From Acidobacteriota bacterium (lineage in GTDB: Bacteria > Acidobacteriota > UBA4820 > DSQY01), in NCBI GenBank assembly GCA_021813555.1, contig JAKAKG010000120.1, forward strand, positions 1-61,167: DNA of 61,167 bases. The letters are read 5' to 3'. This document shows, piece after piece, positions 4,770-50,200 of the stretch. The position numbers and the translations under genes were made by a program. The notes beneath the pieces were generated by a model that did not search any database, was not told where the DNA came from, and worked only from the letters and a program-made list of their open reading frames with translations. Each line of letters opens with the position of its first letter. Within the stretch, counting starts at the first letter, position 1.

Positions 4770-4885
4770 CGGGCCCAGGATAAGCCCGCGGGGCCTTTCC
4801 TGCAAACGGGACGAAAGGTTTGTTGATCATGGCCGCGGGGTAGACTAAAATCAATGGTTGGGAAGGTTTGGAGGAAGGAGCGGCT

Positions 4886-11557: not shown

Positions 11558-11558
11558 C

Positions 11559-13634
11559 ATGGTGCAGTTCAGACACGCCCAGAAGGAGATCCAGTTCAAG
11601 GTCGTCTATTACGGCCCCGCCCTGGGCGGGAAGACCACGAACCTGGAAGCCCTCCACGAGATCACGGACCCGCACGGGGACTCCCAGCTCGTCTCCCTGA
11701 AAACCGCCGAGGACCGGACCCTCTTCTTCGACTTTCTCCCCTTCGACCTGGGAGAGATCCAGGGCTACCACATCCGGTTCCAGGTCTACACCGTGCCCGG
11801 CCAGGTCCACTACAACACGACGCGCAAGGTGGTCCTGGCGGGCACCGATGCTCTGATTTTTGTGGCCGATTCCCAGCCCGGCCGCGCCCAGGAGAACTAC
11901 ATCTCCTGGGAAAACATGAAGGCCAACCTGCTCGCCAACAAGATGGACCTCTCCCAGACGCCCGTGGTCATCCAGTGCAACAAGCGGGATCTCCCCGGGA
12001 TCATGGCGCCCGAGGCGGTCCTCGCCGCCATGAAGGCCGACGGCTTCCCCGTGGCTCTCGCCAGCGCCCTGAGCGGCGAGGGGGTGGTCCAGACCTTCAT
12101 GACCTGCGTGGAGCGCTGTCTCGTGCTCTTCGCGGAGCGCTTCAAGCTGGGACAGAAGGGCGCCACGCCGGAGCGGCTGGCGGAGGGCGTCCGGGCCGTA
12201 TTCACGCCCTTCGCCGAGAAGCGGCGCAAGGGATACCAGCCCGCGGACAGCCGCGTGGCCGTCTCCGCCGAGGTGCCAGTCCACGGCCTCTCCGAGGAGG
12301 AGCAACTGGTGGCGGCCCTCCAGTCCACCACCCAGCTCGCCGAGGAGTACCAGGAGCAGCACCTCCTGAGCCGGATGTACCAGGCCCGCCTCCGCGAAAT
12401 GACGGCGCTTTACGAGATAGGGCGCACCCTCGCGGACGCCACCGAGGTAGAGGCCGCCCTCACCGGCTGCGCGAGCCGCTTGTCGGAGGCCCGGCCCAAC
12501 TGGAAAGTCTCGGCCTTCGCTTCCAGGGGGGGCTCCATCACTCCCTTGCAGTGCTTCGGCTGCGCCGAAGATCCACTCTGGGGTGCCGATGCCCCCGGAG
12601 CGGGGAACCTCGCCCTGGGGCTCCTTCAGCGCAACGAGCGCATGCGCCTCGACGACCTGCAGGACCGCCTCCGGCAGCTCAAGGCCGATCCGCCTCCGGA
12701 CGTGGGGGAGGCCATGGCCATTCCCTTGGGCCCGCAGGGCGGCCCCATGGGGTACTTCATCGTCTACTGCCCCCCCGATGAGCCCTTCAGCAATGACGAG
12801 GACCGGTTTCTGTCTCTCGTGGAACAGGTCATGACCCCTCGCCTTCAGACCCTCGCACTCGTGCGCGAACTGGCGGACGCCAACGAGCGGCTGGAGGTTA
12901 AGGTCATGGAGCGTACGGCGGATCTTCAGTTGGCCCTCGCCCAGCTCACGGAGCTGGACCAGCTCAAACGGGCGTTTTTGAACAACGTGTCCCACGAAAT
13001 GAAGACGCCCCTCACGAACATCCGCTCCTACGCCGATCTGCTCAAGCGCTACCCTCAGCAGCGCGAGAAGAACGCGGAGGAGTACCTGGGCATCATCCAC
13101 GAGGAAACGGTGAGACTGGAGACCATGGTCAACGACCTGCTCTCTTACACCCGCATCAAGGAGCCAGCCCGCGGGGAGTTCTGCGACCTCGTGGCCGTTC
13201 TGGACGACGTCATCCACGTCGTTTCGCCCCAGGCCGACGCCAAACACCTCACGGTGCAGGTCCAGAAGGAGAGGGACACCCTCTTCTACGAGATCAACCG
13301 CGAGGACGCGGTGGTCCTCTTTCGGCAGATCCTGGACAATGCCGTCAAGTTCTCGCCCGAGGGGGTCAAGGTCAAAGTCTACCTCCTTCACGACGCGCGC
13401 AAGGTCATCTTCGCCGCCCGCGATTACGGCCCCGGATTCCCGAAAGACCAGCGGGAGCGCCTGCTGGAGCCCGAGGAATCTGGCAAGCCGCAGGTTCCGA
13501 GCTACAAATCGCCCGGGCTGGGCATGGGCCTCTTCCTCGTGAAGGAGGTCTTGTCCAAGTATGGCGGGGTCATCGCCATCGAGAACATGGAGCCCGGCAG
13601 CAATGTCCTCGTGGAGCTGCCCAAGGCCCAATAG
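11559..13634 (+). CDS. MglA-like small GTPase fused to a GAF domain and a histidine kinase
   Basis: GPALGGKTT, DRTLFFDF, TVPGQ, NKRD; GAF-like middle; NVSHEMKTPL, LDNAVKFS, DYGPG, GLGMGL. Confidence 0.9.
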   Translation: MVQFRHAQKEIQFKVVYYGPALGGKTTNLEALHEITDPHGDSQLVSLKTAEDRTLFFDFLPFDLGEIQGYHIRFQVYTVPGQVHYNTTRKVVLAGTDALIFVADSQPGRAQENYISWENMKANLLANKMDLSQTPVVIQCNKRDLPGIMAPEAVLAAMKADGFPVALASALSGEGVVQTFMTCVERCLVLFAERFKLGQKGATPERLAEGVRAVFTPFAEKRRKGYQPADSRVAVSAEVPVHGLSEEEQLVAALQSTTQLAEEYQEQHLLSRMYQARLREMTALYEIGRTLADATEVEAALTGCASRLSEARPNWKVSAFASRGGSITPLQCFGCAEDPLWGADAPGAGNLALGLLQRNERMRLDDLQDRLRQLKADPPPDVGEAMAIPLGPQGGPMGYFIVYCPPDEPFSNDEDRFLSLVEQVMTPRLQTLALVRELADANERLEVKVMERTADLQLALAQLTELDQLKRAFLNNVSHEMKTPLTNIRSYADLLKRYPQQREKNAEEYLGIIHEETVRLETMVNDLLSYTRIKEPARGEFCDLVAVLDDVIHVVSPQADAKHLTVQVQKERDTLFYEINREDAVVLFRQILDNAVKFSPEGVKVKVYLLHDARKVIFAARDYGPGFPKDQRERLLEPEESGKPQVPSYKSPGLGMGLFLVKEVLSKYGGVIAIENMEPGSNVLVELPKAQ

Positions 13635-32146: not shown

Positions 32147-33075
32147 GCACGCTCAGCAACGGTGCCGCCGTGGCCTTTGAAGGGCTGACGGTGCGCTACG
32201 GGAAAACCACGGCCGTGGACGGCGTATCCCTCCGCGCGTGCAAGGGCGACGTGTACGCCCTGCTGGGCCGGAACGGGTCGGGCAAAACCTCCATGATCCG
32301 GTGCCTGCTGGGCCAGATGAAGGCCAGCGCCGGGTCCGCCGCTCTCTTCGGGCTCGATGCCTGGCAGAAGCGCCAGACGGCCATGAGCAAGGTGGGCGTC
32401 GTCCCCGAAACGCCGGACATGCCCTCCGTCCTCACGGCCCGCGAGATCGTGGCCTTCTGTGCCCGCCTCTACCCGAGCTGGGACGGCAAAAGCGTGGCGG
32501 CGCGGCTGGCGCGCTTTGGCGTTCCCGACAAGGTGCCCTTCGGCCGCCTGTCCCGGGGCCAGAAGAACCAGCTCGCCCTGGCCCTCGCCCTGGGACCCAT
32601 GCCGGAGCTGCTCGTGCTGGACGATCCGACCCTGGGCCTGGACGCGGTGGTCCGAAAGGAGTTCTTCGAGGAGCTGGTGGGCGACCTGGCGGACCGAGGC
32701 ACCACGGTCTTCATTACGACGCACGACCTGCAAGGCATCGAGGGCATCGCCACCCACGCGGGCATCCTCAAGGAGGGGCGCCTGCTTTTGAACGAGGAGA
32801 TGGAATCGCTCAAGGGGAGATTCCGAACGCTGAGCTGGAGCGGGCACGCTTCCCCGCCCTCCCTCGCCGCCCTCTCGCCCCTGAGCGTGCGCCATGACGC
32901 GTGGGGAACCCAGGCCATGGTGGAAGCCTTCGACTATGCCGCCTTCGGGCAGCTCGCGCACGACCTGTCCCCCGCGGAGGCACAGGCCTCCTCCCTATCC
33001 CTGGAAGAACTCTTCATCGCCCTCACGGGCGCCCCCGAGCCGGCCTCGGAGGGCGAGGAAGGAGGCAAGCCATGA
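32143..33075 (+). CDS. ABC transporter ATP-binding protein (YtrB-like)
   Basis: GRNGSGKT, LSRGQ, LVLDDPT, TTH. Confidence 0.92.
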   Translation: MSTLSNGAAVAFEGLTVRYGKTTAVDGVSLRACKGDVYALLGRNGSGKTSMIRCLLGQMKASAGSAALFGLDAWQKRQTAMSKVGVVPETPDMPSVLTAREIVAFCARLYPSWDGKSVAARLARFGVPDKVPFGRLSRGQKNQLALALALGPMPELLVLDDPTLGLDAVVRKEFFEELVGDLADRGTTVFITTHDLQGIEGIATHAGILKEGRLLLNEEMESLKGRFRTLSWSGHASPPSLAALSPLSVRHDAWGTQAMVEAFDYAAFGQLAHDLSPAEAQASSLSLEELFIALTGAPEPASEGEEGGKP

Positions 33076-35036
33076 GCGGGTTCGCTCAGGTGTTCATCCT
33101 CGAAATGCGACTGCGAAAGGCCGTCTTCCCCGCGGCCCTCGTGGCGGGGCTCGTCCCCATACCGCTGGCCTTGCTCATGTGCAACGCGGCCAGTTTTTCA
33201 GAGTCCCTGAACGTGGGGGCCTTCGCCTTCGCCCTCATCGGCGGGGAGCTGCTGGCTCTGTACCTCGGCGCCACGGTTCTGTGCCAGGATCTGAGCGAGG
33301 GGCGGCAGGGCTTCTTCTTCTCCCGTCCCATCTCGGGCTGGGCCCTTTGGGCCGGCAAATTCTCCGCGGCGTGGCTCGTGGTCCTCGGCGCCATGTTCGT
33401 GACCCTCCTTCCCGCGACGCTGCTCGGCGAGGGCTTGGTCAACTTGGAACTCCTCGACAACCCCGCGGGGACCACCAGCCTGGGTGCGAGGTTTCTTTCT
33501 CCCCTTTGGACCCTGGCCTTCGTGGCCGTAGCGATCCTTCTGTTTATGGCCCTCGCGCACGCCTTGAGTGTCATGTTTCGCGCTCGCTCCCCGTGGCTCA
33601 TCCTCGACGCCGTCATGGTGGTTCTCCTGCCCGCGCTGGCCTGGTGGGGATTCAGACGCGTCATGGCGGAGAACCTCCAGTTCATGCTGCTGATCGCCCT
33701 ATTCGTTTGGGGAGGGTCCCTCCTCTTCATCCTCCTTCCCGCCGGAGCCTTGCAGACCGCTCTCGGACGGTGTGACCTGCGCCGCGGGCACAAGGTCCTC
33801 TCCATCACCCTATGGGGCACCGCATCGGCCGCGGTCCTGCTTGTGACCGGCTATATCGTGTGGGCCACGAGCATCGCCCCGTCGGGCCTGAAGAGCATCA
33901 GCTATATTCGTCCCGCGCCCGAGGGTCCCTGGGTCATCGTGGGCGGGCCCGGGCGGGGCCTTGGACCCTATGCGGATGCTACCTTTCTCCTCAATTCCCA
34001 GAGCGGCGCCTGGGCGCGGCTTTCGCTGAACATGTGGGGCGGCGTCCCGCTGTTCTCTCCCGACGGCAAGACGGCGGTGTTCTTTCGGCGGCCCATGAGC
34101 GAGAGCGAGCCCGGCGAGGTCGTGTCCTTCGACCTGACGGCCGCGGGCGATCCAGAGCCCGTGCACCACGGCATCCTTTTCCCGGGCTGGTCGCCTGACC
34201 TGACCTTCTCGCCCGACAGCTCGAAGCTCGCCATCCTCCACGACCTCTCACTGGACGTCTATGACCTCCCGTCTTGGAAACTCGCGGCGGTACGCAAGCT
34301 GGACCTGAAAAACGCGGGAGACCTCGTGTTCGCCGGGGACGACCTGATCCGGATCTACCAGGGTTCCGCCGGCCCGCAAGGGAGCAAGCCCGGCGTGGAG
34401 ACCCTTTCCATCTTCGAATGGGACCTGGGCAAGAAAACCTTCGATGCCACGGGAAAAACGGACGATGTCATGGGCTGGTCCCTGCGGATCAGCCCGGACC
34501 GCACCCGGATGCTTTTGGTTCAAGCGGGGGCTCAAAGCTCCCGTCTCCTGCTATGCGATGCCCGGACGGGGGCGGTGCTCAAGGTACTCTGGCAAGCCGC
34601 CGCCATCAGCAAAGCGGGCGGCGCCTTCCTTCAGGACGGCCGCATCGTGGTCATCGAACGAAAGGGAGACGAGCGAACCCTTCGCGTGTTCACCGCCGCA
34701 GGAGACGAGCAGCACACCGTTCAGTGGAGTCCGGGCACGGATCGCGGTGTTGGGTTCGGCCCCGAGCCGTTACCCGGGAAAGTCCTCCTCTCCTCTTACG
34801 TTCGGAGGAGCGAGTGGATCAAGACAAACGAGATGCATCTGTGGGACGTGGACACGGGCGCCATCACGCTTCTTCCGGGTCTGCACGCGACGTGGAGCGG
34901 CTGGTGGTCCTGGTACAACCGAGATATAGCGGCCTCGCCTGGAAGCCAGGGTGCCGATCTCTTCCTGAACGACAAGGGCCAACTCGTGCGCTACGACTTT
35001 GCGACGGGGCAACAGACGCCGATAAAATTGAAGTAG
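33072..35036 (+). CDS. ABC permease-like membrane protein with a C-terminal TolB/WD40-like beta-propeller
   Basis: About 7 TM, FFFSRPIS, then FSPDGKT, FSPDSSKL and ISPDRTR repeats. Confidence 0.75.
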   Translation: MSGFAQVFILEMRLRKAVFPAALVAGLVPIPLALLMCNAASFSESLNVGAFAFALIGGELLALYLGATVLCQDLSEGRQGFFFSRPISGWALWAGKFSAAWLVVLGAMFVTLLPATLLGEGLVNLELLDNPAGTTSLGARFLSPLWTLAFVAVAILLFMALAHALSVMFRARSPWLILDAVMVVLLPALAWWGFRRVMAENLQFMLLIALFVWGGSLLFILLPAGALQTALGRCDLRRGHKVLSITLWGTASAAVLLVTGYIVWATSIAPSGLKSISYIRPAPEGPWVIVGGPGRGLGPYADATFLLNSQSGAWARLSLNMWGGVPLFSPDGKTAVFFRRPMSESEPGEVVSFDLTAAGDPEPVHHGILFPGWSPDLTFSPDSSKLAILHDLSLDVYDLPSWKLAAVRKLDLKNAGDLVFAGDDLIRIYQGSAGPQGSKPGVETLSIFEWDLGKKTFDATGKTDDVMGWSLRISPDRTRMLLVQAGAQSSRLLLCDARTGAVLKVLWQAAAISKAGGAFLQDGRIVVIERKGDERTLRVFTAAGDEQHTVQWSPGTDRGVGFGPEPLPGKVLLSSYVRRSEWIKTNEMHLWDVDTGAITLLPGLHATWSGWWSWYNRDIAASPGSQGADLFLNDKGQLVRYDFATGQQTPIKLK

Positions 35037-39219: not shown

Positions 39220-39317
39220 CCCCAAGGTGACACTTTATGGTACTTTCGCGGTGCCGCTGGGCGGCGCAAGGCCTTGCCCAAATCGGCCTATCCCTTTAAA
39301 ACCGAAGAGTTGTGCCG

Positions 39318-39333
39318 TGGCACCAAGGTTGCA
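39318..39333 (+). promoter_or_regulatory. Sigma54 (-24/-12) promoter of the pilin gene
   Basis: TGGCAC-CAAGG-TTGCA, exact consensus spacing. Confidence 0.75.
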
Positions 39334-39360
39334 TCGCTTTCCTTCCTTGGAGGGAGAACG

Positions 39361-39864
39361 GTGAGCAAAATGAAGGAAGAGAAGGGGTTCACCCTCATTG
39401 AGCTCCTCATCGTCGTCGCCATCATCGGCATCATCGCGGCCATCGCCATTCCCAACATGATCTCGGCCATCCAAAAGGCGAAGCAAAAGCGCGCCATGGG
39501 AGAGATCCGGGGCATGGGCACGGCGTGCAACTCCTACGCGACAGACACCAGTCATTTTCCTCTCGCCACCACCACCTACGCCGCCACGGACACGATTCCG
39601 GACATGGTTGAGCTGGCGCCCTACTACTTGAAGTCGGTGCCCAACCCCGATCCATGGAATGCCAAATATCAGTATGCGTCCACCTCGACGGGCACGGACT
39701 TCGCCGTGGCCTCGCTGGGCATGCTAAGCACGGCAGACACTCCTGATTTTACCTCGGTGCTCACGGTGAGCCCCCGGCCCACGAGCTGCTTCGAGAACGA
39801 CATCGTCTGGGTGAACGGCGCCTTCACGTACTATCCCGACGGAAAACAGAGCCGCTGCCAGTAG
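39361..39864 (+). CDS. Type IV pilin / GspG-like prepilin
   Basis: KG|FTLIELLIVVAIIGIIAAIAIP class III signal; C-terminal Cys residues. Confidence 0.9.
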   Translation: MSKMKEEKGFTLIELLIVVAIIGIIAAIAIPNMISAIQKAKQKRAMGEIRGMGTACNSYATDTSHFPLATTTYAATDTIPDMVELAPYYLKSVPNPDPWNAKYQYASTSTGTDFAVASLGMLSTADTPDFTSVLTVSPRPTSCFENDIVWVNGAFTYYPDGKQSRCQ

Positions 39865-39922: not shown

Positions 39923-40150
39923 CGAAGAGGACAAGGGGCGCGTGGTTACTGTGCTGCCGTTTCCCGCCTCCGGCCGTTCAATTTCCACTTCCCAGGTCTC
40001 CGCACTTTCTTTCTTGACAATCCGGTGCCCCCTCCGCTATGGTTAAAATGCCAATACGCGCCACGTCGCGCGAAGTACGCGGAGGGGGAGGAGACGGTGG
40101 GGGGTGCCGTCCGAGCAAGACGAGAAGCCTCAGGCTCCTTGGGCATCGCC

Positions 40151-40588
40151 ATGGACGGGGTCCAGGTGTGCTCTTGGCCCTCAATCTTTGCGCCCCTGCG
40201 CACCGATGTCCTGAGCCAGGCTCCCTGGCCTTGTACAGTTACCCAGGCTTCGAGCCTTCTGAACTGGCTCTCCCGGGTTTTTCCACAGCGTCCCCTTCTT
40301 GCCATCACGCACCGTCCCCTTTCGGAGGATGATGGCGTGCCCGTGAGGGGGATCTCGGCCCTCGGCTCCGGGGTGGCCCTTGCCTCCTCGTGGCGCTTGG
40401 GAGACGAAGCGTTCCTTGGCGTGGCGCGCCATGAGGTGGCGCATGCCTTGGGGCTGGGGCATTGTGGCCGATGGGACTGCGCCCTGAGCGAGCGTCCCCA
40501 TCCCATGTCATTGGCGGACCGGCCCAATGAGTTATGTCCGGGCTGCATGGACCTTTGGGACGGGTTGTGCCGGGGGCTGGCGCCATGA
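40151..40588 (+). CDS. Archaemetzincin-like (M54) zinc metalloprotease; start uncertain (40025 or 40151)
   Basis: HEVAHALGLGHC, C-A-L-S, C-terminal CPGC. Confidence 0.75.
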   Translation: MDGVQVCSWPSIFAPLRTDVLSQAPWPCTVTQASSLLNWLSRVFPQRPLLAITHRPLSEDDGVPVRGISALGSGVALASSWRLGDEAFLGVARHEVAHALGLGHCGRWDCALSERPHPMSLADRPNELCPGCMDLWDGLCRGLAP

Positions 40589-42120
40589 GCGTTCGCACCG
40601 CAGCCCTGGCCGTCGTGCTCTCCTTTGCTTCCCTGTGCGTGGCGGCGGCGCCTGGGCCCCGCCCCGAACTGGACAGCGGTGCCTGCCTCTCCTGCCATGT
40701 CTCCCAGCTTGCCACGTTGCCGGCCCAACCGTGCATTTCCTGCCATTCGGGCAACATGGACTTCCTCCAGCGCCACGACGACCGTGGCGCGGACGCCTCC
40801 CTCTGGGTCATGGGAGCCGCGGGAGGAGGGTCCCTCGCTCTTCTCGGTCTCATTGGACTGGCGCGATTCAGAAGGTTGGCGCCGGCCTTGGCCGCGGCGG
40901 CCCTCTCGGCCCTCGCCGCCCCCGCCTTAAACGAGCATTCATCCATGCCGGCCCTCCCTGGATGGGTAACTTTGGCCGAAGGCTTCGCCTGCGACCTAGC
41001 CCCGGCCTTCTCTCCGGACGGGCAGGGCCTCCTTTTCGCCAGGCGCGGTCCCGATACCAATGGTGACGGGATGGTGGACCTGCGCGACGGCCAGGCGCTG
41101 TTCCTGCTCCGGCGCGATTGGGCCGCCCCGAAGCGGCTCACGCCCTACGTTCTTTACGCCGAGCCTGCCCTCGCCGTATGGTCCGCTGCGGGGGACCTGC
41201 TCGCCGTGCCTCTCCCGGCCAGGGGGTCCGAAGGCCCATCCATAGCCCTCTTCAGTTCAGAGGGCCGGCGGCTCTCGGCCCTTCCGTGCGAGGAACCGGC
41301 CATGGGCCTCTCCTTCTCACCTGACGGGCAAGCGCTGGCTTTCGCGGAAGGGAAGGGCATCGGCGCGTGGACCCTGGCTGACGGCGCCCGCACTTGGGCC
41401 TTGACACCCCTTGAGGGCGGCTCCTTCCCCCGTCTTGCCGGGTGGAACCCCTTCGGCGGCAGTCCTCTCTTTACGCGAGGATATGACTACTCCCGAATGG
41501 GCCGCACGCGGGACGGCCGGTATCACCTTCCGGACGAAGTTCTCCTGGAGACGGCTCAAAAGGGCACGAGCCGGCCTTTGACTTCGCCGCGTTCCGCGGC
41601 CCTGCGCCGCTACAAGGCGCAGCCGGTGGCGGGGGCCCTGTTCTACCTGGCCCAGAGCCGCGGCGGCCTCCCCGGCCTCTACCGGTTTGACGGCATGGAG
41701 GAGGCTCTCTGGTCGCGTGAGGATCAGGCGGTTCAAGGATTCTTGGCTGATGGTTCCGAGGCCTGCTGGGCGTGGGTCTCTTCCGGGGAAGGCGGCGCCC
41801 GGCTCCTTCGCTTCGAGGGTCCAGGACGCTTCCATGAAGCGGGCCCGGTCTTCCAGGCCAGCCTCCTGACTATGGCGGAGGACGGCGCCGGAGGCCTCTG
41901 GTGCTCGGGGGCCCCCATGGGGGGAGGCCTTCGGCGGCTCTTGTACGTGGATGAGCGGGGCCGGGTCTCGGTCCCCTTTGAGAACTGCGGCCAGGTGTTC
42001 GGCCTTGCCGCGCGGGCCGGGTCCGTGGCCTTTGTCACCGTTTCCAGGGACACGGACGGCGATGGCGGAATCACGCCCATGGACAGGGGGGAGCTTCGGG
42101 TACGGTGGGCCGCGCCATGA
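40585..42120 (+). CDS. Secreted/membrane protein: two CxxCH motifs, TM segment(s), TolB-like beta-propeller
   Basis: Signal peptide; CLSCH and CISCH; FSPDGQ repeats; DTNGDG and DTDGDG motifs. Confidence 0.7.
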   Translation: MSVRTAALAVVLSFASLCVAAAPGPRPELDSGACLSCHVSQLATLPAQPCISCHSGNMDFLQRHDDRGADASLWVMGAAGGGSLALLGLIGLARFRRLAPALAAAALSALAAPALNEHSSMPALPGWVTLAEGFACDLAPAFSPDGQGLLFARRGPDTNGDGMVDLRDGQALFLLRRDWAAPKRLTPYVLYAEPALAVWSAAGDLLAVPLPARGSEGPSIALFSSEGRRLSALPCEEPAMGLSFSPDGQALAFAEGKGIGAWTLADGARTWALTPLEGGSFPRLAGWNPFGGSPLFTRGYDYSRMGRTRDGRYHLPDEVLLETAQKGTSRPLTSPRSAALRRYKAQPVAGALFYLAQSRGGLPGLYRFDGMEEALWSREDQAVQGFLADGSEACWAWVSSGEGGARLLRFEGPGRFHEAGPVFQASLLTMAEDGAGGLWCSGAPMGGGLRRLLYVDERGRVSVPFENCGQVFGLAARAGSVAFVTVSRDTDGDGGITPMDRGELRVRWAAP

Positions 42121-45100
42121 GCAACCAGCCTCCGAAGGGAAAGCCCCCGGGAAATCGGGTTGCGGCCCCGCCTCGGCCCGCCTCCCACGCTGCCGTGCTC
42201 CGCCAGGGCCAAGCACCTCTCCGGCCAGGACAGGCGGGCCCCGCCGCCGCCAAGAAGGGGCCGGGGTGTCTCGGCTCTCTCTTCCTGGAGCTCACGGGCA
42301 TCGGCTTCCTGCTCCAGATCAAGCGCAAGCTGGGAGGCCTGGGCTTCTTTCTCGCCCTCGCGGGTGTGCTCTTCTTCTGTTTCATCCTCGGGGCGAGGAT
42401 CGAACGCTACGGTCACCTGGGCGAGCATCAGTACATCCTCCAGCTCCTGCCCATGGCCTCGTGCCTGTCGCCCATCCTGGCCTGGTTGATGTCCCTGGCC
42501 TTCGCCGTGGGAGACGTGCTGACCAACGCCACCTACTGGCTCTTCCCGCAGGATTCCAACCTCAACATGTATCATCTCTTCACCAAGGCCCACCCCCTGC
42601 TCACCTGGGGCGCCTACGCCCGGATGGATTTCTTTACCCTGCCGCTGTATGCGCTGTTGCCTGGTCTGGGGTCGAGGATCCTGTACGCCGTGGCTTCGCG
42701 AGCCTTCCACGCGGGGCGGGCCAAACTCATGAAGGACGGTGGCACGGGGGACACGGAAGCCCTCAAACGGCAGTTGAATCAAGCGCTGTCTGACCAAACG
42801 TCCTGTGCCCAGCGGGAGCGGGCCGTCTCGGACCAGTTCAATGGAGCCGATGCGGCCGCCGAGCGGGCCGGTGACCGGATACGGTCGGCGGAGGCTGGAG
42901 AACGTGAGGCGTCCTCGGCGGTGCAAGAGCAAAATGCTCAGACCCAGGAGCAAAACCTGCTGGCCGCCCGGGCTCGCGAGGAGGCGGGCCAGGCCCAGGC
43001 CCGTGCGTCAGCCGCCGGCCAGGAGGCATCGCGGTTCGAAGGGGAGCGAGACCGCGCCGGCGAGGCCCTTCGCCAGGGCAGCCTCCAGGAGGAGAACCTG
43101 AAGGGCCGCCTGGGCGATCTGGGCCGGAAGCGTGAAGAGGCGGATAACCTGGTGAAAGAGTGCCAGGGCAACCTGGAGGCCCTCGCCCGCGACCGGAAGG
43201 CCATGCAGGCGGCCATGGACACGGGCGTGGATCAAGACGGCAGACCCATGACTCCCGAGCGGATGGCCGCCGCCAAGAGAGCGTTGGATCAAAACCTCAT
43301 GGCCGAAGGGCGAGAGAGGGCCCGCTTGGACTCGGCGAGGGACCACCAGCGCGAACTCGCGGCTGAATCGGATCAAGCAAGGCGGGACCTGGAAAATCAG
43401 CAGAAGGCCAACGCCGAAGAGCTGGCGCGATTTCGGCAGGACGAGGCCCGGGCCGCCCAGGCGCGCCGGCGCCAGGAGCAAGCTCAGGAAGAACTCCGCG
43501 CCAAGGAAGCCGCAGAGGATGAGGCGAGGCGAGCGGCGGCCGAGTCCCAGCGCCGGGCACAGGAGGACATGGCGAGGCTGGAGGCCCTTCGCCAGGAGAA
43601 GGCCGCGGCCCTCCGCGATTTTCAATCTGCGGCCGCGCGGCGCAATGCCCTGGCGGATCAGCTCAAGGAAGCGCGAAGCGGCCTTGCGGCGGCCAACGGC
43701 AAAGTGTCTCAGATTCAATCAGCCCTTGGCCTGAGCGCCACGCCTCCCGTGGCGCCGGCGGATCCTTCCGCGGGGCATCACCGGCACCATCCCGATCCGA
43801 ACCAGGAGGTCATCCGCCAGTACGATCAGGCCATGGGCGCGGCCCAGGCCGAGCAGCGCCGCATGCGGGACATGATGGTGCGGCAGTGGCAGGCGGAGAA
43901 CCGCGGCCTCCTCCCTTCGGGCCTCGTGGGCGGCGAGGTGGCGGGAGTGGGCAGTCTCACCAGCCAAGGCTTCGGCCCCCTCGCCGCGGCCGCCGTTGGC
44001 GCCGCCGCGGGTTCGGCCCTGGGCGGGATGGCCCTCCACGGCCACATGTGGGCCGAGTACAACCCCATCCGCCAAATCGTCCACCCCTCGCACTCGGCTG
44101 ACGTGGGCTGCTACAGGATGGACGTGGGCTACCTGGACGGCAACATTCTGTCGGGCGTGGGTTCGGGCACGTCCGTCGCCCCCATAGCCGTGGTGGGGGC
44201 CGAGATGGGCGGCGTGCCTTCCGCGCCGCCGCCGGCGGGTCCCGGTACGGGCCTGCTTCCCCCGGGGCCCGAATCGCCCGGCGGCTGGGCCGCCCCGTCT
44301 CCCGGCGGCGGTATCCCAAGCGAAACGTCCGACGAGCAGGCAGCGCGGGACGCCGCCCGGAAAGCCCGCGACGAGGCGGACCGGTACAAGAAGCAGTGGG
44401 AGGAGTCGGAGGCCTCCGCCGACAAAAACGATCCCGGGTACAAAGACCTCAAGAAGCAGTACGACGACTACATTACGTCCAAAGAGGACGAAGCCGCCGC
44501 GGCCCAGGCTCGGGCCGACGCCAGCCAAAGCCAGCGGCAGGCCGATGAGGCCGCGGCCCAGGCCGCCAAGGACGCCAAAGATGAATGGATTCGCAACCGC
44601 CAGGACGACCTGAAGGCGGCGGCGGAGGAGAAGGCTCACCTCGAAGCGGTCATGGCGGGCGCGGCGGGCGCGGGGCTCAGCACCGCCGACCAGCAAACAA
44701 GGCTCAACCAGCTCAACCAGCGGTTGAGCGATCTCCACGGCCAGCTTCAGAAGGAGGGCGGCGATATCGACTACTCCGCCCGAGACCGAGGTGTCATCGG
44801 CCCCGGCAAGGAATTCCTGGAAGCCCCCGAGAAGGCGCGCCAGGAGGCGGCCAAGCTGGACTACCTCCAAAAGATGCAGAAGGCCGCCTGGGACCACGAC
44901 ATGGTCGATCCCGAGTCGGGCGGCAAGAAGGGCGACATGTACGGGCGGGTGGGGAACGCCATCAACGACTTCCTCGCCGGCAAGAAGCTCGACCCGGACA
45001 TGATCAAGCAGATGCGGGACAGCATCGGGCACCGCATCGACGGCACGACGGCGGACACCTCCCAGCTTCCGGGGCCCGAGAAGCCGTGGTGGCAGGACGG

Positions 45101-46763
45101 CGATTCCATGAGAAAGGCCGTCGCCGAGACGGGCCGCAACATCTCCACCTGCCAGACGAGCGACGGCAAGGTGTCCTGGTCGGGCCTCGCGGGCCGCGTG
45201 GGCATCGGCATCCTGACGGGCGGGACCTCGGAGTGGGTCTTCACCCCGGCGGGGGCGTTGCAGACCACCAAGGACGCGGTGGACCGCGGCGCCGACGGCC
45301 TTGAGGCGACTTACGAGGGCATCAAGGAGACGATCAAGCAGGAGCTCGGCGGAGCCCTCATCGGTGGCGCCCTCAAGACGGGGGCCGCCGGGTTCAAGGG
45401 GATGGCCCAGGCGGAGCTGGCCGGGGAGAACATCCTCAAGGGTGGCGCCAAGGGTGCCTGGGGCGGGCTCAAGGAAGTGGGCAAGGAGGGGGTCAAGGGC
45501 CTCACGGACGTGGTGAGCGCCCAGGCCTGGAAGGACACGGCGAAGGGGTTGACGGGCTCTCTCGGGAGCGGCCTCAAGCGCACGGGGGAGATCCTCACGG
45601 GCGAGGAGGGCCTCACCCTCGGCAAGGGCGCGGGGGAGGGGGCGGAGGCCGCGGCCAACGCGGGGCGCAAGCTACCGCCCTTCGGCTCCCCCGAGGCAGG
45701 CAAGCTGAACCAGCTCCAGGACGCCATCAAGAGCGGCGACCCGGACAAGGTGGCGGGCCTCTACCGCGAGGGCGGCATGAAGGACCTCTCGGACCTCCAG
45801 AAGGCGGGCTACATCAAGCCCGAGGACGCCCAGAAGCTGAACCAGCTCCTCCAGAACCAGGTGAACGGTGCGGTCAGCGACGGCACCAAGGCTGCCGTGA
45901 ACCAGTTCCCCGGCCAGACGGGGGTCCGCGTGAAGGAGGTCCTGGTGGGCGACAGCGGGTCCTCCGCCTCGGGTCCCCCTACGCGCCTCAAGACCGATGC
46001 GGATCGCACCCTCATTCCCACCTTCGACGAGGGCGACCTGCAGCGATACGCCCAGAAGAACGCCATGAGCCGCGACCAGGCCTACGACGAGCTCAGCCAA
46101 AAGTTCCGAGACTCGCACGAGGCCAACGTCTCCAAGGAGCTCCAGGACCGGGGCTTCGGGGACACGGGCAGCGGCAACCCCCAGAAGGCCGCCGACAACG
46201 TGGGATACGGGTCCTACGACCGCATCGGCGGCGGCTCGGGCAAGGCCGATTCCTACGCGGAGGGGTTCACCAACTCGCGTCAGGCCGCCCAGGGGAAAGG
46301 GACGAGCTACACCACGGACGCGGATGGCAACGTCTCTGGAAGCCACCAGGTCTCGGGCCAGTCGGTGGTGGACCAGAACCAGCTCAACCGGCAGAACTAC
46401 GGGGGCGAGGACATCGGGGGCCGGGAGCCCACGTCCATCCCCCCGAGCGAGGTCCCATCGGTCATGAACCAGCAGGCAAACGCCCTGGAGAAGCACGGCG
46501 ACGACCCGCTCTACGTGGCCAAGGCCGTGGGCCGGAGCGAGAAGATCGCCAACACCGTGGGCGAGTCCCTCGGCGACCAGCGCCTAACCCAGGCGGCCAA
46601 GGAAATCTACAGCGATCCCGGCAAGATGAACGATGTCCTGAAAAAATACGGTTACGTGGACGCCCACGGCAACCCCGACCCGTCGGCCTTCTGCTCCCAG
46701 GGTAAAGGCAGCGTCAACGGGTACGCCAACTCCTTCGATTCGGTCACGCCCGATACGCCTTAG
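42117..46763 (+). CDS. Giant hypothetical protein (1548 aa): TM region, long coiled coil, Gly/Pro linkers, C-terminal globular domain
   Basis: Uninterrupted ORF; start overlaps the upstream stop (ATGA). Confidence 0.85.
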   Translation: MSNQPPKGKPPGNRVAAPPRPASHAAVLRQGQAPLRPGQAGPAAAKKGPGCLGSLFLELTGIGFLLQIKRKLGGLGFFLALAGVLFFCFILGARIERYGHLGEHQYILQLLPMASCLSPILAWLMSLAFAVGDVLTNATYWLFPQDSNLNMYHLFTKAHPLLTWGAYARMDFFTLPLYALLPGLGSRILYAVASRAFHAGRAKLMKDGGTGDTEALKRQLNQALSDQTSCAQRERAVSDQFNGADAAAERAGDRIRSAEAGEREASSAVQEQNAQTQEQNLLAARAREEAGQAQARASAAGQEASRFEGERDRAGEALRQGSLQEENLKGRLGDLGRKREEADNLVKECQGNLEALARDRKAMQAAMDTGVDQDGRPMTPERMAAAKRALDQNLMAEGRERARLDSARDHQRELAAESDQARRDLENQQKANAEELARFRQDEARAAQARRRQEQAQEELRAKEAAEDEARRAAAESQRRAQEDMARLEALRQEKAAALRDFQSAAARRNALADQLKEARSGLAAANGKVSQIQSALGLSATPPVAPADPSAGHHRHHPDPNQEVIRQYDQAMGAAQAEQRRMRDMMVRQWQAENRGLLPSGLVGGEVAGVGSLTSQGFGPLAAAAVGAAAGSALGGMALHGHMWAEYNPIRQIVHPSHSADVGCYRMDVGYLDGNILSGVGSGTSVAPIAVVGAEMGGVPSAPPPAGPGTGLLPPGPESPGGWAAPSPGGGIPSETSDEQAARDAARKARDEADRYKKQWEESEASADKNDPGYKDLKKQYDDYITSKEDEAAAAQARADASQSQRQADEAAAQAAKDAKDEWIRNRQDDLKAAAEEKAHLEAVMAGAAGAGLSTADQQTRLNQLNQRLSDLHGQLQKEGGDIDYSARDRGVIGPGKEFLEAPEKARQEAAKLDYLQKMQKAAWDHDMVDPESGGKKGDMYGRVGNAINDFLAGKKLDPDMIKQMRDSIGHRIDGTTADTSQLPGPEKPWWQDGDSMRKAVAETGRNISTCQTSDGKVSWSGLAGRVGIGILTGGTSEWVFTPAGALQTTKDAVDRGADGLEATYEGIKETIKQELGGALIGGALKTGAAGFKGMAQAELAGENILKGGAKGAWGGLKEVGKEGVKGLTDVVSAQAWKDTAKGLTGSLGSGLKRTGEILTGEEGLTLGKGAGEGAEAAANAGRKLPPFGSPEAGKLNQLQDAIKSGDPDKVAGLYREGGMKDLSDLQKAGYIKPEDAQKLNQLLQNQVNGAVSDGTKAAVNQFPGQTGVRVKEVLVGDSGSSASGPPTRLKTDADRTLIPTFDEGDLQRYAQKNAMSRDQAYDELSQKFRDSHEANVSKELQDRGFGDTGSGNPQKAADNVGYGSYDRIGGGSGKADSYAEGFTNSRQAAQGKGTSYTTDADGNVSGSHQVSGQSVVDQNQLNRQNYGGEDIGGREPTSIPPSEVPSVMNQQANALEKHGDDPLYVAKAVGRSEKIANTVGESLGDQRLTQAAKEIYSDPGKMNDVLKKYGYVDAHGNPDPSAFCSQGKGSVNGYANSFDSVTPDTP

Positions 46764-46772
46764 AGGTGAGGC

Positions 46773-48098
46773 ATGCTCGTCGAACAAGGTGAGTGGATTC
46801 TGAACGAGGGAGAAATGGCTGCCGTGGCGGCCAGTTTCGGGATAGTGTCCTCGCCTCTCGGCGTGATCCCGAAGGCCCTTCCGCCGAAGGCCCTTGCGGA
46901 GGAGGCCGTCAAGGTTTTCCAAGACCTCGACCCATCGTTCAAGGGCCTCGCGGAGCGGTGCCTGAGGGCCCTCGCTGCGCCCGACAAGCTCGTGCACGTC
47001 CACAACGTCGTGGCCGACCAGCGGGTGAGCCGCGCCCTCATGGTTTTCTCTCCGGTCATGGGTGGGGCGTGGGTTTCCCTGGCCCGCTCGGGGGAGCTGC
47101 GCCGGGTGAGCCTCCGCTCCGAGGCCGAGCTCCGCTTCCTCGTGGCCGACGCCCTCGCCGCCGACGCGAGCCTCCGCCCCGACCGCGTGAGCGTGAACCT
47201 CTCCACCCCTGAAGCCCTCGTCCTCCTGGCCGTGTTCGAACAGCTGAGGCGGGCGAGGCTCATCTCCCTCCTGGACCACAAGGAGCCCGTGACCCTCTTC
47301 GCCGCTGAGGACGTGGAAGCGAGATTGAAGGAGGCGGACGTGGAGGACTTCCGCTGGACCCTCCCCTTCCTCGCCAAGCTCCTGCCCCTTCCCATGGGCG
47401 ACCTGGCCGTGACGAAAGATTGCCGCCCCGCCCTCATGGCCCTGGAGAAGGCGGGGCTCCTGGAGCGCCTGGGCATCCAAAACGATAGGATGGTGTGCGA
47501 GCTCACCAACCCCGGGGCCTTCCTCGAGGCGGGCTTCCGCGACTCCAGCGCGAGGGCGGCCCTCTCCGTGACGGCCCCCGTGCGCGGCGGGCTGGCCCAC
47601 GACGTCCTCCTCCTCGTGCGGTCCGCCTTCGACCTGTTCCTGGTGTCCTTGAGCGGAGGCGACGCGGCCCTTTCCACGATCCTCGCCGGCGACCTGGACG
47701 AGACCATGAAGCTCGTCTTTGCCCCCCCGCCCGCCCTTCCCGCGGAGGTACCCGAGCAGGGCGCGGAGGCCACGGTCATCCTGGACGGCCCCACCATGAA
47801 TCTCGCGCGCCTGGTGGTGGACGCGGGGCCCCTGGCGGGAACGGCCTGCGCCCTCGTGGACGGGCTAGGGCTCGGACGCCAGGCGGACAACGGCATGGTC
47901 ATCAACGATCCGGGCATCTCCCGGCACCACGCCAGGTTCCGCCGCGATCCGGCGGGGGTGTGGTCCGTGGAGGACCTGGGGAGCAGCAACGGCACCTTCG
48001 TGAACGAGGTCAGGATTACCGCGCCCATGGCCCTCCAAGACGGAGACCACATCAGGGTCAGCAACACCGTCATGACCTTCAATCCGCGCGAAGCCTGA
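46773..48098 (+). CDS. Hypothetical protein with a C-terminal FHA domain
   Basis: LGRQADN, ISRHHA, DLGSSNGTFVN; GAGG RBS. Confidence 0.88.
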   Translation: MLVEQGEWILNEGEMAAVAASFGIVSSPLGVIPKALPPKALAEEAVKVFQDLDPSFKGLAERCLRALAAPDKLVHVHNVVADQRVSRALMVFSPVMGGAWVSLARSGELRRVSLRSEAELRFLVADALAADASLRPDRVSVNLSTPEALVLLAVFEQLRRARLISLLDHKEPVTLFAAEDVEARLKEADVEDFRWTLPFLAKLLPLPMGDLAVTKDCRPALMALEKAGLLERLGIQNDRMVCELTNPGAFLEAGFRDSSARAALSVTAPVRGGLAHDVLLLVRSAFDLFLVSLSGGDAALSTILAGDLDETMKLVFAPPPALPAEVPEQGAEATVILDGPTMNLARLVVDAGPLAGTACALVDGLGLGRQADNGMVINDPGISRHHARFRRDPAGVWSVEDLGSSNGTFVNEVRITAPMALQDGDHIRVSNTVMTFNPREA

Positions 48099-48115: not shown

Positions 48116-48676
48116 ATGGCCGAGTTTTGGAAAGACGGCTGGCAGGAGGACGCCTTCGGCAGGCTCCGGGGTTTCATCCAGTCGTCTCCCGCGTGGTACG
48201 AGAACCTCTCTCCGTCGGACGTGGCGGAAGACGCCTATCTCCTGGGCGTGGCCTCGACCCTCTTCCTGCGCGACGAGGACGCGGGGGCCAAGGCTTCGCC
48301 CGCTCCCTCCGCCGTCGCGCGAGAGGCCATGAAGCTCGCGCCCCTGGGCGTCCCCCCGTTCACCTATGAGCGCTCTCTTGTGGCCGGAGGCGACGCGTCG
48401 GCCTCCTACGCGGGATCGGCACAAGGCCGCTTCGGCGCGCTGCACGGGGAGGCCGCGCGGCGTGCCGGGTCTCAGGACCGTTGGGCCGCGGGCCTCGACG
48501 CCCTGCGGCGCGCGGGGGCCCTGCGCGCCCAGTGGCCCGAGGAGGAGCCTCTTCATGCGCCCCCCGTGGCCACCTTCGGAGAGGATATGCGCGCCTGCAC
48601 CCACGTCGTTCTTCGCAGGGCCGTGCACGCCTTTAAGATCGGATTTGGCCTCTGGGGCCGGTGGGAGTCTCCATGA
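48116..48676 (+). CDS. Hypothetical protein (186 aa)
   Basis: GGAGG RBS; coupled to the next gene. Confidence 0.7.
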   Translation: MAEFWKDGWQEDAFGRLRGFIQSSPAWYENLSPSDVAEDAYLLGVASTLFLRDEDAGAKASPAPSAVAREAMKLAPLGVPPFTYERSLVAGGDASASYAGSAQGRFGALHGEAARRAGSQDRWAAGLDALRRAGALRAQWPEEEPLHAPPVATFGEDMRACTHVVLRRAVHAFKIGFGLWGRWESP

Positions 48677-49095
48677 TCGAGACACGCCTGAGCCTGGGCG
48701 AGGCCCGCTATCTCCTCCAGGTTCTGGACCTGAAGCTCGCTCCCGAATCTCCCTTGGCGGATCCCCTTGGAGGGGCCGCCGAGGTTCCCGCGGGCAGCAC
48801 GGCCGAGGCCGGTGTGGCCAAGAGTCTCACGTCCCGGGGGCTACTCCTGAGCGACGGCGCGCCCAATCCCTTTGCGGCCGCGGCCATGGTGTGGCTGGCC
48901 CAGCCGGAGAAGGCGTGGACCCTCTCCCTTTTCGGACGCGGGGGCGCCGCCATGGTGCACCTGGCGTTCAAAGGAGGTTCGGCGGTGGAGTGCCGCCGCG
49001 ACGCGGAAGGCTTTCTCCTTCGCTATCCCCTCCCGGAGGCCGAGGCCGAAGGGTGGCTCCGCCTCCATGTGGACGGAGGACGCCATGGTTCTTGA
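48673..49095 (+). CDS. Hypothetical protein (140 aa), EspG-like pattern
   Basis: LSLGEARYLL...LTSRGLL...WLAQPE; ATGA overlap. Confidence 0.7.
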   Translation: MIETRLSLGEARYLLQVLDLKLAPESPLADPLGGAAEVPAGSTAEAGVAKSLTSRGLLLSDGAPNPFAAAAMVWLAQPEKAWTLSLFGRGGAAMVHLAFKGGSAVECRRDAEGFLLRYPLPEAEAEGWLRLHVDGGRHGS

Positions 49096-50200
49096 CGCGG
49101 CCTTCGCGCCCCAGGCCAACTTGGGCCTCAAGATTCTCTCTTTCTTCACCACGGGCGCCTTCTTTCTGATCACCCTCTTCCTCAAGCTCTGCTATTCCAC
49201 GGCCCTCTACGCCACCCTGGCGGAGATCTCCCGGCGCATCGCCCTTTTCAGGCAGACGAGGCGGCCGGCTCTGAGGGCCCTCCTCCTCCTGCCCGCGGTA
49301 GTCGTCTTCTGCACCGCCATCCTGTTCGCCCTCAACCTCTGGCGGGTGGTGTTCGGATCCCTTGATCTCAAGGGCTTCACGCAGGCCTTCAACCCCATGG
49401 ACATCATCTGGGTCTTTCTGCGAGGGGGCTTCTTCTTGGGGGCGGTTGCTCTGGGGGCGGTTCTGGGCCTCATGGTGGCCAACCACGTCACCCTGGGCCG
49501 GGACCGGTTCGGAGGCGTCCTTTATAAGAACCGGGGCCGTTACCTCGCCTTCTGGTTCGCGGCCTTCTCCGTGTGCGGCTTGTTCCGTCTGTTGCCTTGG
49601 GGCTTCGTGACCTACTGGACGGTCTGGGTCGTGGTCCTTGCCGCGTGCCTGGTGACGGCGGCCCACTGGTCCATCTACGGCAAGGTCAGGAGCGTTGCCG
49701 CGGCGACAGCGCCGGGCCTTCCAGCGGGAGGGGAGATCGCCTTCACCCTCGCGGCCCGCGAGGCGGTGGCCCTCTCAGCGCTCCTGCGCGGCCGGGCTCC
49801 CAGGGACGCGGAGGCCCTGGCCCGCTCGCTCGCCGACCCCGATCCCTCATGGCTCGCTCACCCCGCCTGGACCGCCGAGTTGAGGGTGCTGGTCCAAGAC
49901 CCCTCGGCCCTCGGCGCCGCCCTCGAAGGATTGTCCGTCAAAGGGCTCGCCGCGAAGAATGGGAAGGGATGGAGCCCCGCTGGCCCCGCCGCGCGTTTGC
50001 GCCTCATGGGCTTCGCCGAGACGGCGGCCGGTCTCACCGTGCGGAAGGCAGGGGCTGCCCGCACGGTAGTCCTCCACCTGCAAGGCCCCTCGGCCCTGCT
50101 CCTGGAGCCCGGTCCCGCCACCCTCGGCGTCCGAGAGTTTCCCCGCGGCGCCGATGCAGTTGCGGCGCTGGTCGGTGCCGCGGAGGGGCGTGCAGGGTAG
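49085..50200 (+). CDS. Membrane protein (about 5-6 TM) with a soluble C-terminal domain
   Basis: GGAGG RBS; hydrophobic N-half; C-half resembles the second unit of the 46773 protein. Confidence 0.75.
   Translation: MVLDAAFAPQANLGLKILSFFTTGAFFLITLFLKLCYSTALYATLAEISRRIALFRQTRRPALRALLLLPAVVVFCTAILFALNLWRVVFGSLDLKGFTQAFNPMDIIWVFLRGGFFLGAVALGAVLGLMVANHVTLGRDRFGGVLYKNRGRYLAFWFAAFSVCGLFRLLPWGFVTYWTVWVVVLAACLVTAAHWSIYGKVRSVAAATAPGLPAGGEIAFTLAAREAVALSALLRGRAPRDAEALARSLADPDPSWLAHPAWTAELRVLVQDPSALGAALEGLSVKGLAAKNGKGWSPAGPAARLRLMGFAETAAGLTVRKAGAARTVVLHLQGPSALLLEPGPATLGVREFPRGADAVAALVGAAEGRAG

Follow-up and report, generated by a model that had tools for sequence, protein, structure and literature searches.

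The gene and its product

The stretch analysed here, referred to in the following as the window, comprises the 61,167 nucleotides of contig JAKAKG010000120.1 from an Acidobacteriota bacterium (assembly GCA_021813555.1), and our subject is a gene within it that encodes a protein of 1548 amino acids (aa). For the sake of simplicity, we will refer to this protein as the giant. Its open reading frame (ORF, 42117-46763) is real and intact. The ATG start codon shares an ATGA overlap with the TGA stop codon of an upstream gene for a PD40 propeller, and the stop codon is TAG (46761-46763). Only 10 nucleotides separate it from the next gene, called the partner below, whose ATG at 46773 is preceded by a Shine-Dalgarno sequence (AGGTGAGG). 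The G+C content at third codon positions (GC3) of the giant is 0.86, in a window with an overall G+C content of 67%. Ordinary chromosomal genes surround the locus (UvrB, Nramp, RlmL, PAS-GGDEF-EAL and an M32 peptidase). Judging from synteny and from an orthologue divergence that resembles vertical descent, the giant looks like a chromosomally encoded, vertically inherited gene.

A first-pass annotation had described the protein as a membrane-anchored, long-reach effector with a polymorphic-toxin-like layout, a translocation segment and an enzymatic tip of nucleotidyltransferase (NTase) type. All of the features that it listed were recovered from the translation, the hydropathy and the composition. 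In order, these are a basic proline-rich start (a basic Pro/Ala-rich stretch, residues 1-49), three to four transmembrane segments (four hydrophobic segments at 50-68, 75-93, 113-131 and 175-193), a coiled coil of about 330 aa (an A/R/E/Q/L-rich helical region at approximately 215-545), the motif GHHRHHP (553-559), a Gly-zipper (GPLAAAAVGAAAGSALGG, residues 620-637), a Pro/Gly linker (681-735), a second helical region (736-1000), two Gly-rich segments (GLAGRVGIGILTGG at 1023-1036 and GGALIGGALKTG at 1078-1089) and finally VLVGDSG1281-S-x11-D1294-A-D1296, with exactly the numbering given before. What these parts might mean is the topic of the following sections. The features of the locus are collected in Table 1.

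Table 1. Features of the giant and of the adjoining genes, with positions in the window
Feature	Position	Strand	Basis and remarks
Archaemetzincin-like small protein, Acidobacteriota clade only	40025..40588	+	HExxHxxGxxHCx4C...CxxC; start codon uncertain
PD40/TolB-like beta-propeller, signal-peptide-like N-terminus	40534..42120	+	Pfam PD40 E 1.3e-6, synteny
Whole giant gene, polytopic membrane protein, 1548 aa	42117..46763	+	ORF, translation, GC3, orthologues
Basic Pro/Ala-rich tail, residues 1-49	42117..42263	+	mean orthologue identity 0.24 (poor)
Membrane domain, residues 50-200, four hydrophobic segments	42264..42716	+	mean identity 0.72
Coil 1, A/R/E/Q/L-rich helical region, residues 215-545	42759..43751	+	composition; identity low, 0.36-0.40
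Gly/Pro turn DTGVDQDGRPMTPERM in mid-coil 1, residues 366-382	43212..43262	+	identity 0.64, flanks 0.36-0.40
GHHRHHP, basic patch, residues 553-559	43773..43793	+	orthologue alignment
Gly/Ala-zipper hydrophobic segment, residues 620-637	43974..44027	+	Kyte-Doolittle 1.65
Juxtamembrane motif HGHMWAEYNPIR..HPSH..DVGCY+MDVGYLD, residues 641-676	44037..44144	+	orthologue identity 0.80, highest stretch
Second helical/coiled-coil region, residues 736-1000	44322..45116	+	identity 0.59-0.68
Conserved element, residues 1001-1066 (formerly 'hairpin')	45117..45314	+	identity 0.73
Gly/Ala/Lys-rich flexible linker, residues 1067-1189	45315..45683	+	composition
C-terminal domain, residues 1190-1548, ~360 aa	45684..46760	+	profile family, AlphaFold model
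Candidate active-site loop VLVGDSGSSASGPPTRLKTDADRT (G1281, S1282, D1294, D1296), residues 1275-1298	45939..46010	+	conservation, model
Partner gene, N-terminal domain, ~320 aa	46773..47747	+	co-occurrence with C-terminal domain; no Pfam match
Partner gene, C-terminal FHA domain	47865..48089	+	Pfam FHA, E 5.5e-20
187-aa protein, conserved C-terminal HAFKIGFGLWGRWE	48116..48676	+	synteny
144-aa protein, weak EspG-like match	48661..49095	+	PF14011 E 1.2e-5, 25.5 bits, cutoff 27; synteny
~370-aa polytopic membrane protein, soluble C-terminal part	49085..50200	+	no Pfam match; synteny

A fixed C-terminal domain with variable N-termini

A search of 5.8 billion proteins returned 12 relatives of the giant, mostly 1470-1590 aa in length, with 42-61% identity across 95-99% of the query. 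The exceptions were P0011, which is more divergent (71% coverage), and P0012, which is frameshifted. P0012 (ENA) is out of frame past approximately residue 870 (columns ~1000-1746 of alignment A1), reflecting either an assembly frameshift or a pseudogene. Among species-representative genomes, the giant occurs in six metagenome-assembled genomes (MAGs) of Acidobacteriota/Thermoanaerobaculia only.

The hallmark of polymorphic toxins is that homologues are alike save in the C-terminal-most domain (Zhang et al. 2012, PMC3482391). In the case of the giant, eleven full-length orthologues from Acidobacteriota MAGs are collinear with it to the last residues, and their C-terminus is as conserved as the rest. 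When compared with the orthologue at locus L001, identity is 68% in the C-terminal domain (CTD), 65% in the N-terminal transmembrane region, 47% in the first coiled coil (coil 1) and 74-79% in the 721-1090 region. As the orthologue C-termini are collinear and conserved, the hallmark is absent, and the swapping of C-termini that a toxin of this class would display was not seen. Regarding known domains, the full-length giant matched no Pfam family at E<=0.01, and no trafficking, processing or pre-toxin domain was found in it with Pfam or NCBIfam. The same libraries gave no domain or gene of type II, V, VI or VII secretion systems and no Rhs, PAAR, LXG or HINT among the window genes scanned. By tblastn, the 61-kb window holds neither an orphan CTD nor an additional copy of the partner, only the genes themselves.

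The wider family was then defined with a CTD profile (residues 1185-1548), searched against 1.84 billion cluster representatives. It matched 141 of these proteins, with E<1e-30 in 107 cases. In all of them the CTD occupies the C-terminus, at a median of 20 residues from the end of host proteins that are mostly 800-1960 aa long, and it is the most widespread part of the giant. Named carriers are found in Firmicutes (Natranaerofaba carboxydovora, Ca. Syntrophonatronum, Clostridiales), Chloroflexi (Anaerolineae) and Acidobacteriota, and the family is probably also present in the FCB group; relatives were absent from the viral contigs scanned. The CTD is a new, widespread, enzyme-like domain family of several phyla. 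One type of N-terminus consists of a signal peptide or anchor, an ectodomain of 150-550 aa and one Gly-rich transmembrane segment, which is followed by the CTD module. Other members carry five to eight transmembrane segments, an N-terminal zinc ribbon, or a signal peptide with BACON, ASH/Ig or PKD domains. Across the wider family, in contrast to the polymorphic-toxin-like layout, the C-terminus is fixed and the N-terminus variable.

A second element accompanies the CTD across phyla. Residues 1001-1066 follow the pattern TGRNxS..TSDG..GxxGRxxIGxLTGGxSEW..P..Y..KDAxDxG, which is visible in a consensus of 102 sequences, and the element is present 50-220 aa upstream of the CTD in 67 of the 94 long CTD proteins. 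It corresponds to what had been taken for a translocation hairpin. Because its polar and charged residues (R1027, TGGxSE, D1056) are conserved and because it is shared by so many members, we set the translocation reading aside; the element looks soluble and is not an obvious segment for membrane insertion.

At one locus (L031, 1897-5087), the CTD forms a separate ORF of 355 aa behind a 705-aa ORF and an ORF with a PKD domain, near an rve transposase. On this long-read contig, the standalone CTD probably results from a frameshift that splits the gene and is not a free cassette.

A conserved partner gene

The first-pass annotation had noted that no obvious small immunity gene follows the giant. 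This is literally correct, but it misses the conserved partner gene directly downstream (46773-48098, 441 aa). Its N-terminal domain lies immediately 3' of the CTD gene in 21 of 26 related CTD-containing loci, as determined by tblastn and hidden Markov models (HMMs). These 21 include distant metagenomic loci in which CTD identity is only 27-35%, and one further locus carries a divergent look-alike. No fusion of CTD and partner was seen.

Partners measure 380-460 aa. Those of other phyla carry one to three zinc ribbons where the Acidobacteriota partner has its FHA domain. Within the N-terminal domain, residues ~211-265 gave recurrent weak matches to winged helices of the MarR/PadR type (E 0.13-0.6). 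The partner has no signal peptide, and its FHA and zinc-ribbon modules are of a cytoplasmic type. CTD proteins of the BACON/Ig type, which have a signal peptide only, come without a partner gene. At two such loci (L019, 5861-11077, and L023, 3-3821), ORFs resembling an extracytoplasmic function (ECF) sigma factor and a zf-HC2 anti-sigma factor are found downstream in its place.

Membrane topology

Regarding the side of the membrane on which the CTD lies, a set of 20 members combines an N-terminal signal peptide or anchor with a single further transmembrane segment. In these the C-terminal module would have to be cytoplasmic, with lysine plus arginine counts of 26 after the transmembrane segment and 13 before it. 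We infer that the CTD faces the cytoplasm. The FHA and zinc-ribbon modules of the partner and its want of a signal peptide fit such a placement. For the giant, a cytoplasmic CTD would require an odd number of N-terminal transmembrane segments, and coil 1 would consequently be periplasmic, alongside the PD40 propeller. The N-terminal tail (residues 1-49) is presumed to be cytoplasmic from the positive-inside rule. Residues 620-637 are likely the last transmembrane helix ahead of the conserved C-terminal module, and distant members show Gly-rich transmembrane segments at the equivalent position. Members with a signal peptide and one transmembrane segment (e.g. P0014, P0017, P0018, P0021 and P0022) also share a conserved motif, IPLPEN..QA.AG.LIPGL, which is located just ahead of and inside the Gly-rich helix.

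A candidate active site in the C-terminal domain

Conservation was evaluated in 106 CTDs, taken from clusters that share 50% identity at most. G1281, D1294, D1296, K1469 and R1473 are invariant in all of them, and S1280, S1282 (98%), Y1367, D1378, Y1380, G1393, D1419, Q1453 and P1501 are conserved in at least 95%. Because of the invariant G, D, D, K and R, together with a D, D, Y, Y and Q at this second level, the CTD looks like an active-site domain, and from this pattern of residues it is likely to be catalytic. The first-pass annotation had based its proposal on G[GS]x9-13Dx[DE] as a signature of the Pol-beta superfamily. Here the motif itself gained weight, its Asp pair being invariant, whereas the bare expression turned out to be at chance level: it matches once in the giant, and shuffled sequences gave an average of 1.39 matches, with one or more in 72% of the shuffles.

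An AlphaFold2 model of the CTD, obtained with a 35-sequence alignment, is confident (predicted local distance difference test, pLDDT, 92.8; predicted template modelling score, pTM, 0.91). In model numbering, where D-A-D-R corresponds to 110-113, a 34-residue helix leads to a strand (88-95) whose last residues are VGD. G-S is succeeded at once by a short helix (98-100), and D-A-D by another strand (113-119). The remainder consists of several helices, a 3-residue strand, a further helix, a beta-hairpin and a helical C-terminal part bearing K1469 and R1473. The NTase fold is defined by hG[GS] opening the short second core helix, by [DE]h[DE]h and by a third carboxylate, h[DE]h, on an adjacent strand (Kuchta et al. 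2009, PMC2794190). The strand/short-helix/strand order and the motif spacing of the CTD are in keeping with the first two of these (PMC2794190). By predicted secondary structure, D1378 lies in a loop and D1419 where a helix begins.

Enzymes of the OAS/cGAS type have a long helix ahead of strand 1 and conserved K/R residues in the helical C-terminal lobe. The spacing GS...DAD in human OAS1 is the same as the GS-x11-DxD of the CTD. When the CTD profile was aligned to the human OAS1 sequence with hhalign, a post hoc choice, the GS/DAD motif alone was aligned (40% identity over 30 columns, probability 1.6%). Against PDB sequences, the CTD profile gave only a weak ComGC-like match (E 0.092) and no NTase, and a 41-column profile of the motif only gave chance matches and no NTases. 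Foldseek of a first CTD model against PDB yielded nothing significant. Pfam, NCBIfam and PADLOC likewise assigned the CTD to no family.

Other families with a similar motif were considered and set aside. GyrB-type Toprim domains (EGDSAGGSAKQG ... TDADVDG) have a spacing of about 70 aa, compared to 11 in the CTD, and their Glu is missing here. Motif I of the HAD family (DxDxT) ought to end strand 1, unlike in the CTD. The phosphate-1 loop of ASKHA proteins (DxGSSxxK) was rejected as the CTD is mainly helical, with only four to five strands.

A further resemblance concerns the N-terminal helices of the CTD (LY..GGM..L..LE..G.IS..EA..LN; residues ~1190-1250, window 45684-45870). These are the source of the weak likeness to the ComGC competence pilin (PDB 6y1h), and 5 of 35 members also matched DUF5817_CT (best E 0.001). 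Both resemblances are probably due to chance. A pseudopilin gene is located at 39274-39864 of the window.

Upstream segments and the Acidobacteriota operon

The membrane domain (residues 50-200) is among the two best-kept parts of the Acidobacteriota orthologues, with the motifs IERYGHLGE, PLLTWGAYARMDF and LPGLGSR, and residues 1-218 have no Pfam match even at E<=10. Coil 1 is specific to the Acidobacteriota clade and is missing from distant family members; a weak SMC coiled-coil match over 226-533 is the sole NCBIfam match of the full-length giant. It is probably an antiparallel coiled-coil hairpin, for which the Gly/Pro turn is a candidate tip: G370 and G375 are invariant in the orthologue alignment, and R376 and P377 are nearly so. 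The histidines of GHHRHHP are not conserved, as the orthologues show RHRKRP, RRRHKP, RRPPRRP and similar sequences at this position, and it is the basic patch that is retained. The juxtamembrane region (641-676) gave no match in family searches. The second helical region is weakly kept in some distant loci.

In every sufficiently long Acidobacteriota locus, seven genes are syntenic and flanked by housekeeping genes. Their order is archaemetzincin-like protein, PD40 propeller, giant, FHA partner, 187-aa protein, 144-aa EspG-like protein and the membrane protein of ~370 aa. Distant loci share the pair of giant and partner only. The archaemetzincin-like ORF has a double-zinc motif (HEVAHALGLGHCGRWDCAL...CPGC), is conserved in 10 loci and matched Pfam M54 at only E 0.0057. 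PADLOC-DB 2.0 returned no family at E<=0.1 for eight operon proteins. When the N-terminal domain of the partner, the 144-aa and 187-aa proteins and the C-terminal part of the membrane protein were compared with one another by hhalign, no paralogy of significance emerged; the N-termini of the partner and the 144-aa protein came closest (E 0.006, probability 6%).

Two known systems come to mind for this operon. The 144-aa protein resembles EspG of type VII secretion systems (PF14011), but the match is below the Pfam cutoff and covers 75 residues only, and no EccC/EssC, WXG100 or other gene of such a system was found among the genes scanned. The second is Tol-Pal, where a membrane-anchored long-helix protein (TolA) likewise stands beside a PD40 propeller with a signal peptide (TolB). 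The likeness is one of analogy only: no relation by sequence to TolA, TolQ or TolR exists, and the PD40 neighbour does not meet the NCBIfam TolB models. As a whole, the seven-gene operon suggests a larger envelope-associated complex.

Elsewhere in the window, three genes deserve a mention. A histidine kinase (HisKA and HATPase_c; 11499-13634, forward strand) has an N-terminal match to Arf/small GTPases (E 2.5e-7), which is an unusual fusion. Of the window genes scanned, just one codes for a Ser/Thr-phospho-signalling enzyme, an 809-aa protein with a C-terminal SpoIIE/PP2C phosphatase domain (2376-4805, reverse strand); the giant gene is ~37 kb away from it and the FHA gene ~42 kb. Finally, a 711-aa ORF (32901-35036, forward strand) has a coding-like GC3 of 0.79 and no Pfam family at E<=1e-5.

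A proposed receptor-like protein with a putative catalytic output domain

Our preferred reading, held tentatively, is that the giant is a receptor-like inner-membrane protein whose cytoplasmic catalytic output domain belongs to a new family and acts with a dedicated partner. We arrive at signalling because the module is fixed at the C-terminus while the membrane-bound and extracytoplasmic N-termini vary across phyla, and variable input with a fixed output is a typical layout of signalling proteins. The defining module would consist of the element at 1001-1066, the flexible linker and the catalytic-looking domain of ~360 aa; in the Acidobacteriota, it would be joined to the conserved domain of three to four transmembrane segments and to a long coiled-coil stalk. 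The CTD may be a metal-dependent phospho- or nucleotidyl-transferase, in which Mg2+ would be held by D1294, D1296 and probably D1378 or D1419, and the phosphates of a nucleoside triphosphate (NTP) by G1281/S1282 with K1469/R1473. Its likeliest form would be a very divergent NTase of the Pol-beta type. It could act on the co-translated partner, or make a ligand for it.

Transmembrane signalling enzymes provide the closest architectural parallel. Membrane proteins with GGDEF domains, adenylate cyclases and kinases of the PknB type with FHA partners similarly combine a variable ectodomain or membrane part, a transmembrane helix, a coiled coil and a C-terminal catalytic-looking domain. As for PknB-type kinases, the CTD of Acidobacteria has a dedicated cytoplasmic partner with an FHA domain, which binds phosphothreonine. 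Unlike in these systems, no known cyclase or kinase is related to the CTD, and the operon contains neither a kinase nor a phosphatase.

Several observations weigh against this reading. Where hG[GS] and [DE]h[DE]h call for hydrophobic residues ('h'), the CTD has polar ones (S-G-S, D-A-D-R), and the predicted strands that might carry the third carboxylate (182-184, 210-216 and 222-229) have no conserved acidic residue. With the confident model as query, Foldseek returned nothing significant from PDB or BFVD, the best E being 0.25-0.4; cGAS and FAM46/TENT5 recur among these non-significant matches, with cGAS and FAM46B appearing only at E 1-2 and TM-scores of 0.20-0.23. None of 35 diverse CTDs matched an NTase model of Pfam or NCBIfam (NTP_transf_2, Mab-21, SMODS, PAP or similar) at E<=10. 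With regard to topology, that of the giant, read from hydropathy, is ambiguous between three and four N-terminal transmembrane segments. Members of the BACON/Ig subfamily have a signal peptide and no later transmembrane segment, so that by hydropathy their CTD would be outside the cell, and they lack the partner; this placement is awkward for a cytoplasmic enzyme that uses NTPs. Moreover, members of the CTD family are labelled 'hypothetical' by every source.

The proposal of an enzymatic NTase tip has come through in part. The tip does give a confident model, and its invariant Gly and Asp pair and local structure have a catalytic look, but neither Foldseek (PDB and BFVD, nothing at E<0.25) nor HMM searches returned an NTase fold. 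In favour of NTases of the Pol-beta type (OAS/cGAS/CD-NTase, MNT/KNTase) are the GS-x11-DxD motif itself, with GS at a short helix and DxD where the second strand begins, the 34-residue helix before strand 1 and the invariant K/R in the helical C-terminal part. The NTase assignment is plausible and the fold unproven; that the chemistry is of the NTase type we would put forward with reserve, at somewhat less than an even chance.

The alternative that survives best leaves the rest of the system as it is and changes the chemistry: the CTD would be some other metal-dependent enzyme of a new fold, such as a phosphatase, a phosphodiesterase, a kinase-like enzyme or a glycosyl/phospho-transferase. 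Much of what was just listed could be read in this way, namely a confident model that matches no NTase in Foldseek, the absence of HMM matches and a bare regular expression at chance level, to which may be added that the best-kept extra acids, D1378 and D1419, lie off the predicted strands. Against it, the look-alikes from Toprim, HAD and ASKHA fit worse, the motif has the spacing of the OAS1 motif and is 40% identical to it where aligned, and the long first helix and K/R-bearing lobe resemble the OAS/cGAS type. In the model, GS also opens a short helix flanked by a strand on either side, in line with how the NTase fold is defined (PMC2794190). We regard another chemistry as unlikely, if worth keeping in mind.

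A system of defence, either abortive infection or toxin-antitoxin-like, would make the giant a membrane sensor with a toxic nucleotide-modifying effector kept in check or switched on by the partner. The patchy occurrence of the two-gene cassette over phyla, an enzyme-like domain with an NTase-like signature, variable sensor parts and a locus adjoining a transposase would all suit such a module. The lack of PADLOC matches for eight operon proteins and of relatives in the viral contigs scanned argues against it, as does the Acidobacteriota setting, which is a stable seven-gene operon beside housekeeping genes and not a variable island, with orthologues diverging as in vertical descent. We consider a defensive role improbable.

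We attach a similarly low likelihood to the giant being a non-enzymatic structural protein, i.e. an envelope-spanning tether or scaffold whose CTD binds the partner. The long coiled coils, flexible linkers and membrane anchoring, the PD40/TolB-like neighbour, the obligate partner and the lack of an enzyme-family match are in line with this. However, D, D, K, R and G together with D, D, Y, Y and Q kept across ~30% identity are typical of catalysis and not of an interface, and across the family it is the CTD that is conserved and not the 'structural' N-terminal parts.

Last comes the polymorphic toxin of the first-pass annotation, here extended to an NTase-like tip that is delivered to other cells and to a downstream gene that provides immunity. 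Some features do recall such toxins: a large protein with an enzyme-like C-terminal domain and an invariant Asp pair, a conserved next gene that co-occurs with the CTD, the same domain on different N-termini, and a partner that is missing beside the signal-peptide-only BACON-type proteins, which would never expose the CTD to their own cytoplasm. Toxin domains indeed occur behind N-terminal regions of various kinds, and the known toxins include RelA/SpoT domains, which are related to Pol-beta (PMC3482391). We nevertheless judge this reading to be very improbable, given the invariant C-terminus where variation is the hallmark (PMC3482391), the absence of trafficking or repeat domains (Rhs, filamentous haemagglutinin, LXG) and of orphan cassettes in the window, the stable chromosomal context among housekeeping genes, a partner with FHA or zinc ribbons that is far from a typical small immunity protein, and a CTD on the producer's own cytoplasmic side in most members.

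Implications

Returning to the receptor-like reading, a broader version of it can be envisaged. As a new fold or as the founder of a family of divergent NTases, the CTD would form with its partner an unrecognised two-gene module of transmembrane signalling that spans phyla, in which extracytoplasmic or membrane input controls nucleotidylation of the partner or a nucleotide signal. We consider this broader version possible but rather doubtful.

Independently of the exact chemistry, the giant illustrates that a big protein with an enzyme-like tip need not be a polymorphic toxin. Here the tip is fixed and the rest varies, and a tempting mis-annotation is thereby corrected. The CTD combines a confident predicted structure that has no detectable relatives with a clear candidate active site, which makes it directly testable. 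If the receptor-like reading holds true, bacterial transmembrane signalling or regulation would gain an output domain, the CTD, and a partner family that are both new.

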